Of a stretch of 64,000 bases of DNA, positions 50,810 through 51,949 are shown one piece after another. This stretch comes from an uncultured Candidatus Saccharibacteria bacterium. GTDB taxonomy: Bacteria > Patescibacteriota > CAZHWT01. The stretch lies in assembly GCA_964597145.1 (NCBI GenBank), contig CAZQWH010000001.1:15696-79695 (forward strand). The letters run 5' to 3'. The notes under the pieces were generated by a model that saw only the letters and a program-made list of their open reading frames with translations, made no database searches and was not told where the DNA came from. Made by a program: the position numbers and the translations under genes. The number at the start of each line of letters is the position of its first letter. The stretch's first letter is position 1.

Positions 50810-51949
50810 ATGGATGCTGCCCCCCCACAACCATTGGTGGTCGATCCCGATTCAATTGGAGTTGATGCCACCAGCCAAGCTATTGCGACCTCAACCATTG
50901 ATGCACCACTCGATGTCGAGTTGTCAAAGTTAATGGCGTCTGTCGAGGCAACAGAATTGCCATCGGAATTGCACGTTAAATTGAAAAACCTGTTGGTTCG
51001 GCTCAATCGGTCGGTTGGCCAAGTCGGCTATCTCAATCTGTATGAGGAGGTAACCAGCTACATAGAGTGGGTAATTTCACTTCCTTGGACAGCCCGCAAT
51101 AACGATATTTTAGATCTGCATGCAGCCCAAGATGTGTTAAACCAAAGCCATTATGGTTTATTGCCAATCAAGCAACGTATTTTAGAACACCTGTCGGTCT
51201 TAATTCTGCAGGCCAAAACCGAGTCTCCCGAATCTGTCACCCGCTCGCCAGTGCTGTGTTTTGTTGGATTGCCGGGTATTGGTAAAACCTCCATCGCCTT
51301 TTCCATTGCCCAAAGTTTAGGCCGTCCGTTTATTCGTATCCCCATGGGTGGTATGGGAACAGCTAAACAATTACGTGGAGAACCGCGCAGTATGGCTGCT
51401 GCCGAACCTGGTCAGATTATTAAATCGTTACGTCGGGTTAAGGTGAAAAACCCGGTTATTTTACTAGACGAAATCGACCGCACCGCCGAGAGCGCCCGGG
51501 CTGAGATTATGGGAGTGCTGTTGGAGTTGCTCGATCCAGAGCAAAACTCCGCCTTCAGCGATAACTACATCGATTACCCTTTCAATCTATCCGAAGTCCT
51601 GTTTATCGCCTCGGCTAACAACACCAATGGCATTGCCAATGCCGTCCTGGATCGACTTGAAGTAATTCAAATGCCAGGCTACAGCGATGAAGAGAAAATT
51701 CATATTGCTCAGAATTACCTCTTCCCTCGTCAACTCAAATTTGCCGCTATACCCGATGGAGCGGTAACGGTTGATGAAGCAGTCTGGCCCATGATTATTC
51801 GACCATTAGGCTTCGACGCCGGCATTCGGACCACTGAGCGGCTAATCAACGGTATCGTCCGCAAAATTGCCTTACAGCTAGTAAGTGGAGCCGGACAGCA
51901 ATTTACCATTACCCCGCAGAACCTAAAACAGTTCATGCCGTCATGGTAG
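50810..51949 (+). CDS. Lon-like AAA+ ATPase lacking both the N-terminal LAN domain and the C-terminal S16 protease domain
   Basis: It aligns by eye to the LonA substrate-recognition linker plus AAA+ module. Walker A is GLPGIGKTS, Walker B ILLDEID, sensor-1 ASANN, Arg-finger LDR, sensor-2 GIR. The protein ends where the Lon protease domain would begin. The pore-loop region reads [17 protein letters not shown] (no aromatic residue). Confidence 0.7.
   Translation: [379 protein letters not shown]

Follow-up and report, generated by a model that had tools for sequence, protein, structure and literature searches.

A protease-less relative of Lon is encoded in a 64,000-nucleotide stretch of DNA (hereafter the window) from an uncultured Candidatus Saccharibacteria bacterium (GenBank assembly GCA_964597145.1, contig CAZQWH010000001.1, positions 15,696 to 79,695 of the forward strand). 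The 379-residue product of this gene is a stand-alone LonA-type AAA+ module from which both flanking domains of LonA, the substrate-binding one at the N terminus and the S16 protease, have been lost, and it belongs to a conserved family of stand-alone LonA-derived AAA+ ATPases, found mostly in the Candidate Phyla Radiation (CPR, or Patescibacteria), whose protein is uncharacterized. The residues of the ATPase site are retained throughout the family and the elements that line the channel have been rewritten. We favor, with a probability of roughly 0.6, a stand-alone AAA+ remodeler derived from LonA that serves a new client, with a possible link to RNA decay or translation.

Domain Content and Predicted Structure

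The open reading frame (ORF) is intact from its ATG start to its stop codon (Table 1). A preliminary description, made from the DNA letters alone, had read it as Lon reduced to a bare AAA+ module that aligns with the linker and AAA+ region of LonA and stops at the AAA+/protease boundary, and profile searches bear this out. The NCBIfam model for Lon (TIGR00763, lon) was matched only from position 256 to 571 of 795, by residues 39–364 (E = 1.5e-94), and the score of 318 bits does not reach the curated cut-off of 608 bits. Pfam assigned AAA (E = 1.2e-19) and a weak Lon_lid match (24.5 bits vs. a 27-bit cut-off), and found neither LON_substr_bdg (PF02190) nor Lon_C (PF05362) in the ORF. The motifs quoted in that description for the linker plus AAA+ region are all present. 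In the alignment the ORF ends two residues beyond the point where E. coli Lon enters the linker to its protease domain, and the gene for RNase J (rnj) begins 179 nucleotides (nt) after the stop. A tblastn search of the window with the N domain (residues 1–245) and protease domain (586–784) of E. coli Lon gave no match at E ≤ 1e-5. With a 179-nt spacer leading directly to rnj and this negative search, a frameshift or an S16 frame further downstream is ruled out.

The nearest solved structures, identified by phmmer against the PDB, were LonA AAA+ modules, with B. subtilis Lon first (3m6a, E = 9.7e-72), followed by E. coli Lon, Yersinia Lon, and human LONP1; 6n2i and 6u5z were among the structures matched. 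An AlphaFold model built with 34 family sequences had a mean predicted local distance difference test score (pLDDT) of 88 and superposed in Foldseek with LONP1/LonA AAA+ modules at template-modeling (TM) scores of 0.75–0.82. Both searches identify the protein as a Lon-type AAA+ module with its lid, and Lon_lid is assigned in most relatives. LonB combines a protease domain with a membrane insertion in the ATPase, and LonC combines a protease domain with degenerate Walker motifs. The protein belongs to neither class, as Pfam detected no protease domain, the Walker motifs are intact, and the AlphaFold model contains no inserted hydrophobic segment of the LonB type.

A Conserved Family of Short Lon-Type ATPases

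The best 120 database relatives are 298–411 residues long, usually with AAA plus Lon_lid, and Lon_C was found in none of them; the named ones are “AAA family ATPase” entries of Microgenomates, WWE3, Shapirobacteria, and Gottesmanbacteria. For analysis of gene context we collected 46 family loci, comprising about 37 of the 80 loci from a one-genome-per-species scan that covered 600 stretches, 8 reached by protein look-up, and the window itself. These loci are a sample rather than a census, and the family has at least 46. Apart from the window they come from about 45 other assemblies that, where labeled, are overwhelmingly CPR/Patescibacteria (Ames-, Levy-, Shapiro-, Gottesman-, Davies-, Woese-, and Nomurabacteria, or “Patescibacteria group”). 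Titles such as “uncultured Gammaproteobacteria,” “Methanoperedens,” and “Cloacimonetes” on some loci from metagenome-assembled genomes look unreliable because those loci share the CPR-type gene order.

Nearly all of the 46 loci encode a short protein ending at the same junction as the 379-residue ORF, and in most of them the C-terminal tail follows the consensus N-[IV]-K-x-[FY]-L-P-x-[WY], immediately before the stop. By tblastn, neither a Lon N domain nor a protease domain was detected within ±8 kb at any of them (0/46). Canonical Lon loci served as controls: the protease domain followed directly after the AAA match, in the same frame, in 41 of the 41 loci with downstream sequence, and the N domain lay upstream in nearly all 41 (two further control loci were uninformative).

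In a neighbor-joining tree of AAA+ modules the family formed a single clade, the divergent “GLQGVGKT” members included. One protein on a 2.7 kb contig (P0219) appeared as its sister; since its nearest relatives, after two proteins at 46–57% identity, are eukaryotic mitochondrial Lons, the placement is probably due to long-branch attraction. The canonical Lons scoring highest against the family profile came from Clostridiales, Veillonellaceae, Ktedonobacterales, and Deinococcus and not from CPR, which is weak evidence on whether genomes carrying the family also hold a full-length Lon. Among curated families, none in Pfam, NCBIfam, or PADLOC describes this short Lon-type ATPase, and the literature that we searched held nothing relevant on protease-less Lon or on Lon in CPR or Saccharibacteria. 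Several members are named “ATP-dependent Lon protease” in IMG/JGI, and for this reason metabolic reconstructions of CPR may credit genomes with a Lon protease that the family gene does not encode.

Selection and the Pseudogene Question

Missing N-terminal and protease domains could also mean that the gene is a recent pseudogene, a frameshift product, or an assembly artefact of a full-length lon, and these absences are the sole support for such an explanation. The ORF is intact, and the identical 379-residue protein is present on eight independently assembled contigs. The same truncation and tail recur at the 46 loci. Given that synonymous sites were saturated at the 91% amino-acid identity of the relative used for comparison (proportion of synonymous differences, pS, 0.82; range 0.79–0.87), we set nonsynonymous divergence (dN) against that of neighboring genes instead of calculating a dN/dS ratio. 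For the same genome pair, dN was 0.056 for the ATPase gene, 0.057 for rnj, and 0.044 for pnp, the gene for PNPase. Because dN is this low, equal to that of rnj, over saturated synonymous sites, we conclude that purifying selection on the ATPase gene is as strong as on its essential neighbors RNase J and PNPase. The 120 short relatives, the 46 loci, and the dN result together rule out a pseudogene, an explanation to which we assign a vanishingly small probability. The earlier judgment that this is not a recent pseudogene stands: relatives stop at the same junction under purifying selection, and every orthologue recovered was short. Foreign DNA is ruled out by the native base composition.

An Intact ATPase Site and a Rewritten Channel

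We aligned 129 family members with E. coli Lon, whose numbering is used here, and took the roles of individual residues from work on Yersinia and E. coli Lon (PMC7239648). The preliminary description held the ATPase machinery to be intact, and the alignment agrees, since seven catalytic residues are each conserved in 129/129 members: Lys362 and Thr363 of Walker A, Asp423 and Glu424 of Walker B, sensor-1 Asn473, the Arg484 finger, and sensor-2 Arg542. With all of these residues present, the family is predicted to be catalytically competent and ring-forming. Residues that couple the ATPase to the channel are also retained, with Tyr294 in 126/129, Trp297 in 125/129, and Glu447 in 119/129. In the 379-residue protein the first two correspond to Tyr84 and Trp87, and Tyr74 probably occupies the portal position of Met284, where the alignment is ambiguous. 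The pre-sensor-1 β-hairpin with coupling residues that marks the HCLR clade is present as well; the Tyr456 position is Tyr or Phe in 129/129 members, and Glu458 is replaced by Asp in 126/129.

The channel-facing elements are different. Pore loop 1 aligns with RGHRRTYVGAMPG of B. subtilis and RGHRRTYIGSMPG of E. coli (RGHRRTY[IV]G[AS]MPG), and Tyr398-Ile399-Gly400 of Lon reads Met-Ala-Ala in the 379-residue protein, which leaves no aromatic-hydrophobic-Gly motif. The loss of the aromatic residue, noted previously for this one protein, is part of a family-wide loss of the canonical motif, and pore loop 2 has been rebuilt too. Position 398 is occupied by His (26 of 129), Phe (21), Leu (19), Tyr (15), Asn (10), Arg (8), Gln (7), Thr (6), or other residues (17), so that about 28% of members have Phe or Tyr there compared with Tyr in 100% of canonical Lons. 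Elsewhere in the loop Ile399 is changed to Pro in 83 members, Gly400 to Asp or Glu in 98, Met402 to Glu in 126, and Arg395 to Ser in 86. The resulting family motifs are x-x-P-[D/E]-A-E-P-G in pore loop 1 and A-R-A-x-I-M-G in pore loop 2.

A scan for positions that are at least 90% conserved in 57 canonical Lons yet different in the family placed almost all of them in three blocks, namely residues 387–400 (pore loop 1 and its approach), 434–439 (the G-D-P of pore loop 2), and 535–538 (a lid motif in which Y-T-x-E becomes L-G-x-D). Outside these blocks, Pro357 of Walker A is changed to Leu and Lys427 to Arg. The substituted motifs are themselves conserved within the family (A-E-P-G, I-M-G, R-P-L-G-F-D, and W-P), and the channel-facing elements have thus been rebuilt and have not decayed. 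Because the rebuilt loop is strongly conserved and the family keeps the residues through which ATP state is coupled to the axial channel (Tyr294, Trp297, Tyr456, Glu447, and the trans-acting arginine finger), the pore-loop pattern points to a channel selected for a different client rather than a dead channel. The preliminary description took the missing aromatic residue to mean that substrates cannot be threaded, an inference to set beside the Phe or Tyr that about 28% of members carry at position 398.

These loops also bear on the possibility that the family is one half of a split Lon, in which the ATPase would dock through its L-P-x-W tail onto a separately encoded S16 or other self-compartmentalized peptidase and support degradation in trans. 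Other AAA+ unfoldases bind partner peptidases through docking tails or loops, and here the stop falls exactly at the AAA+/protease junction, the tail at that point is conserved, and neither the ATPase nor the ring-forming arginine finger is damaged. Against such a split, no Lon_C-like sequence was found within ±8 kb of the 46 loci or in the window, and both polypeptide-translocating pore loops are without their canonical invariant residues, which would be unexpected for an unchanged job. We consider a split Lon improbable.

Gene Neighborhood

The gene order in the window is nusA-infB-x-DHH-rpsO-pnp-AAA-rnj-ftsK-x-rodZ-glmS, where AAA denotes the Lon-like ATPase gene, and across family loci the conserved cluster is pnp-AAA-(udg)-rnj-ftsK. 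Of the 36 loci with enough flanking sequence, 31 had an RNase J gene downstream and codirectional with the ATPase gene, directly adjacent in 16 and with only a uracil-DNA glycosylase gene between in 13. PNPase lay upstream in 25/39 loci and FtsK downstream in 22/27. In two loci with a ribosomal-protein context (L005 and L009) the ATPase gene and rnj are found between rplO and rpsL, and the pair thus persists in a second context.

The intervening uracil-DNA glycosylase gene (PF03167) is an observation in its own right. It separates the Lon-like ATPase gene from rnj in many CPR genomes (L008, L010, L015, L017, L018, L024, L025, L035–L037, L040, L041, and L043) and is not present in the window. 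The RNase J of the window carries an N-terminal extension of about 95 residues (52129–52410, + strand), rich in Arg, Lys, Pro, Gln, and Ser, that looks disordered and basic by composition; it is lineage-specific, as tblastn matches in other species begin at about residue 95.

This context could mean that the ring engages RNase J and/or PNPase, or their ribonucleoprotein substrates, and provides the remodeling that in other bacterial degradosomes falls to DEAD-box helicases. Such a partnership is a sharper version of the remodeler reading, and we regard it as unlikely in that specific form. It would account for RNase J downstream in 31/36 loci, for the pair being kept in a second genomic context, and for the divergent members that adjoin further genes of RNA metabolism or translation (Jag/R3H, L25, and ABC-F). 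The gene also sits between two of the three core ribonucleases (rnj, rnc, and pnp) reported to be retained in CPR (PMC12641178). Set against this, the order forms part of a more extensive housekeeping cluster passed on by descent, and pore loops this acidic are ill-suited to nucleic acid. To our knowledge, no Lon-clade AAA+ acts on RNA.

A role in anti-phage defense or as part of a mobile element was also weighed. BREX and related systems include Lon-like ATPases, and there were weak, generic AAA matches to the PADLOC models DolB (E = 5.9e-06, the best), TRIP13, and IetA. These matches are partial and limited to the P-loop core, the neighbors at every locus are housekeeping genes with none of a defense type, and base composition is native; we rejected a defense component, and its probability is negligible.

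Proposed Function

The family arose from LonA by loss of the N-terminal substrate-binding and S16 protease domains with the hydrolysis site left intact. In the reading that we favor, a remodeler, the protein would still form a ring in which ATP powers mechanical work at the channel. The client would differ from that of Lon and no fused protease would be fed, as expected of an ATP-driven remodeler or chaperone rather than a degradation machine. On the basis of the acidic P-[D/E]-A-E loops and the gene context, the likeliest clients would be basic proteins associated with RNA, or else the RNase J/PNPase apparatus, and the conserved L-P-x-W tail may serve for docking. A regulatory or adaptor role, as proposed in the preliminary description, is supported neither way by these results.

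Several observations weigh against this reading. Four loci have neither rnj nor pnp nearby: the greatest divergence is seen in L046, L044, and L030 (43–49% identity), which have an ABC-F ATPase, Jag(R3H) plus L25, or GroEL as neighbors, and L006 (56% identity) adjoins lysine-biosynthesis genes. In the window, co-transcription of the ATPase gene and rnj is doubtful given that the spacer is 179 nt long and has its own promoter-like element. The order nusA-infB-rpsO-pnp...rnj-ftsK-rodZ is conserved as a whole in these lineages, and for this reason adjacency to rnj may owe more to descent of the gene order than to function. Direct threading of RNA is disfavored by an acidic channel. Finally, the protease domain of LonA contributes to hexamer stability, and by analogy the ring may need a partner or ATP to form.

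A bolder proposal, which we put forward as speculation with a low probability, is that a CPR Lon-derived AAA+ ring has been repurposed to RNA metabolism, docking (perhaps by its L-P-x-W tail) on RNase J and/or the PNPase ring and remodeling a minimal degradosome or ribosomal and RNA-bound basic proteins.

Few protein-quality-control machines are as conserved as Lon, whose defining trait is the fusion of an ATPase with a protease. In the family described here the motor is kept and the substrate-gripping parts are rewritten, a natural experiment in the redeployment of an AAA+ protease motor. The family spans a very large bacterial radiation with dN as low as that of essential RNases. It also points to an uncharacterized ATP-dependent activity in minimal-genome organisms, where a retained gene likely matters.

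Repeated Element and Other Features of the Window

The spacer repeat mentioned in the preliminary description is real: nhmmer placed a ~75-nt element at three sites in the window, the spacer among them (E 1e-20 to 1e-23). In addition to the copy in the spacer (Table 1), copies lie at 37955–38028 (+) and 24225–24292 (−), and the three sit just upstream, on the coding strand, of rnj, dnaK, and hsp20. The element contains a TTGRC box and the inverted repeat CTGAG-N10-CTCAG, together with a hairpin of 7 bp, TCCCGGA-N5-TCYGGGA, in which there is a G-C/G-U change. The dnaK and hsp20 copies have ~40 nt more in common, including a further hairpin. The corresponding spacer of the 91%-identical relative (L093) lacks the element. 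The inverted repeat resembles HAIR, the operator of HspR, and the element may be a heat-shock promoter/operator or 5′-leader RNA that was copied in front of rnj.

Ahead of hrcA (36458) is a separate inverted repeat (TTAGCACTT-N9-TGGTGCTAA, 36308–36335, +), CIRCE-like as judged by eye against the consensus. On this assignment the hrcA-grpE-dnaK-dnaJ cluster would carry a CIRCE-like repeat plus the separate element before dnaK. Two transposase-like ORFs, an IS200-like Y1 transposase (27913–28689, −; Pfam Y1_Tnp, E = 5e-09) and an ORF between ftsK and rodZ with a faint Transposase_mut match (57148–57903, +), are mobile-element remnants in an otherwise housekeeping region. A 192-residue ORF (21915–22493, −) gave a sub-threshold match to Emfourin (26 bits vs. 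a 27-bit cut-off), a metalloprotease-inhibitor family. No Rfam families were found in the window.

TABLE 1. Positions in the window of the Lon-like ATPase gene, its sequence elements, and adjoining features.
Feature	Position	Strand	Evidence
Complete ORF, stand-alone LonA-type AAA+ module	50810..51949	+	Pfam, NCBIfam, PDB phmmer, AlphaFold, Foldseek
Residues 1–35, variable N-terminal tail, predicted disordered	50810..50914	+	pLDDT 45–52; alignment (common to closest relatives only)
Residues 36–136, C-terminal part of Lon coiled coil and three-helix bundle (NTD3H) before ATPase	50915..51217	+	Alignment, AlphaFold
Walker A GLPGIGKT, residues 153–160; Lys159 and Thr160 invariant	51266..51289	+	Family alignment
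Pore-loop-1 equivalent, residues 189–201; Met195 at Tyr398 position, Glu199 at Met402 position	51374..51412	+	Alignment
Walker B Asp220-Glu221	51467..51472	+	Alignment
Pore-loop-2 equivalent, residues 225–236; A-x-I-M-G in place of Lon G-D-P	51482..51517	+	Alignment
Sensor-1 Asn270 (E. coli Asn473)	51617..51619	+	Alignment
Trans-acting arginine finger Arg282 (E. coli Arg484)	51653..51655	+	Alignment
Sensor-2 Arg340 (E. coli Arg542), within family-specific lid motif	51827..51829	+	Alignment
Conserved C-terminal tail NLKQFMPSW, at Lon AAA+/protease junction	51920..51946	+	Alignment
~75-nt repeated element in spacer between ATPase gene and rnj	51972..52044	+	nhmmer
rnj (RNase J), conserved downstream neighbor	52129..54054	+	Family loci
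pnp (PNPase), frequent upstream neighbor	48525..50687	+	Family loci

Comparison With Known Systems

The AAA+ module is homologous to that of LonA (B. subtilis 3m6a, E. coli 6u5z, and human LONP1; MEROPS S16) at E values of 1e-70, with 35–38% identity in structural alignments and TM scores of ~0.8. Shared with LonA are the three-helix bundle, the Lon-type lid, Walker A and B, sensors 1 and 2, the arginine finger, the hairpin Tyr, and the bridging Glu. Unlike LonA, the family is without N-terminal substrate-binding and S16 domains and ends in the L-P-x-W tail, the T-Y-[IV]-G of pore loop 1 and G-D-P of pore loop 2 are replaced, and the substitutions at Pro357 and in the lid described above set it further apart. 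LonC retains its protease and has a degenerate, non-hydrolyzing AAA-like domain. Both are Lon derivatives in which one activity has been given up, and the family is the mirror image of LonC, with the ATPase kept and the protease lost.

Tandem Lon-AAA+ proteins likewise redeploy the Lon-type AAA+ module, in their case as an extra module; they keep the protease domain, GPPGxGKT, and DEIDK, and fall outside the family clade in the tree. Those that we encountered (P0123–P0139 and others) are 900–1700 residues long, with two or three AAA+ modules followed by one Lon_C; P0123 is annotated “AAA family ATPase [Candidatus Dependentiae bacterium],” and some of the first modules have degenerate pore loops. 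We know of no description of such “double-ring” Lons.

Like the family, ClpX, HslU, and ClpB are HCLR-clade ring ATPases with no fused protease. ClpX and HslU have known peptidase partners, which the family is not known to have, and ClpB works without any protease. The three keep the aromatic-hydrophobic pore loop and the family does not. In function, these stand-alone HCLR ATPases, ClpB, ClpX, and HslU, are the closest known counterparts of the family.

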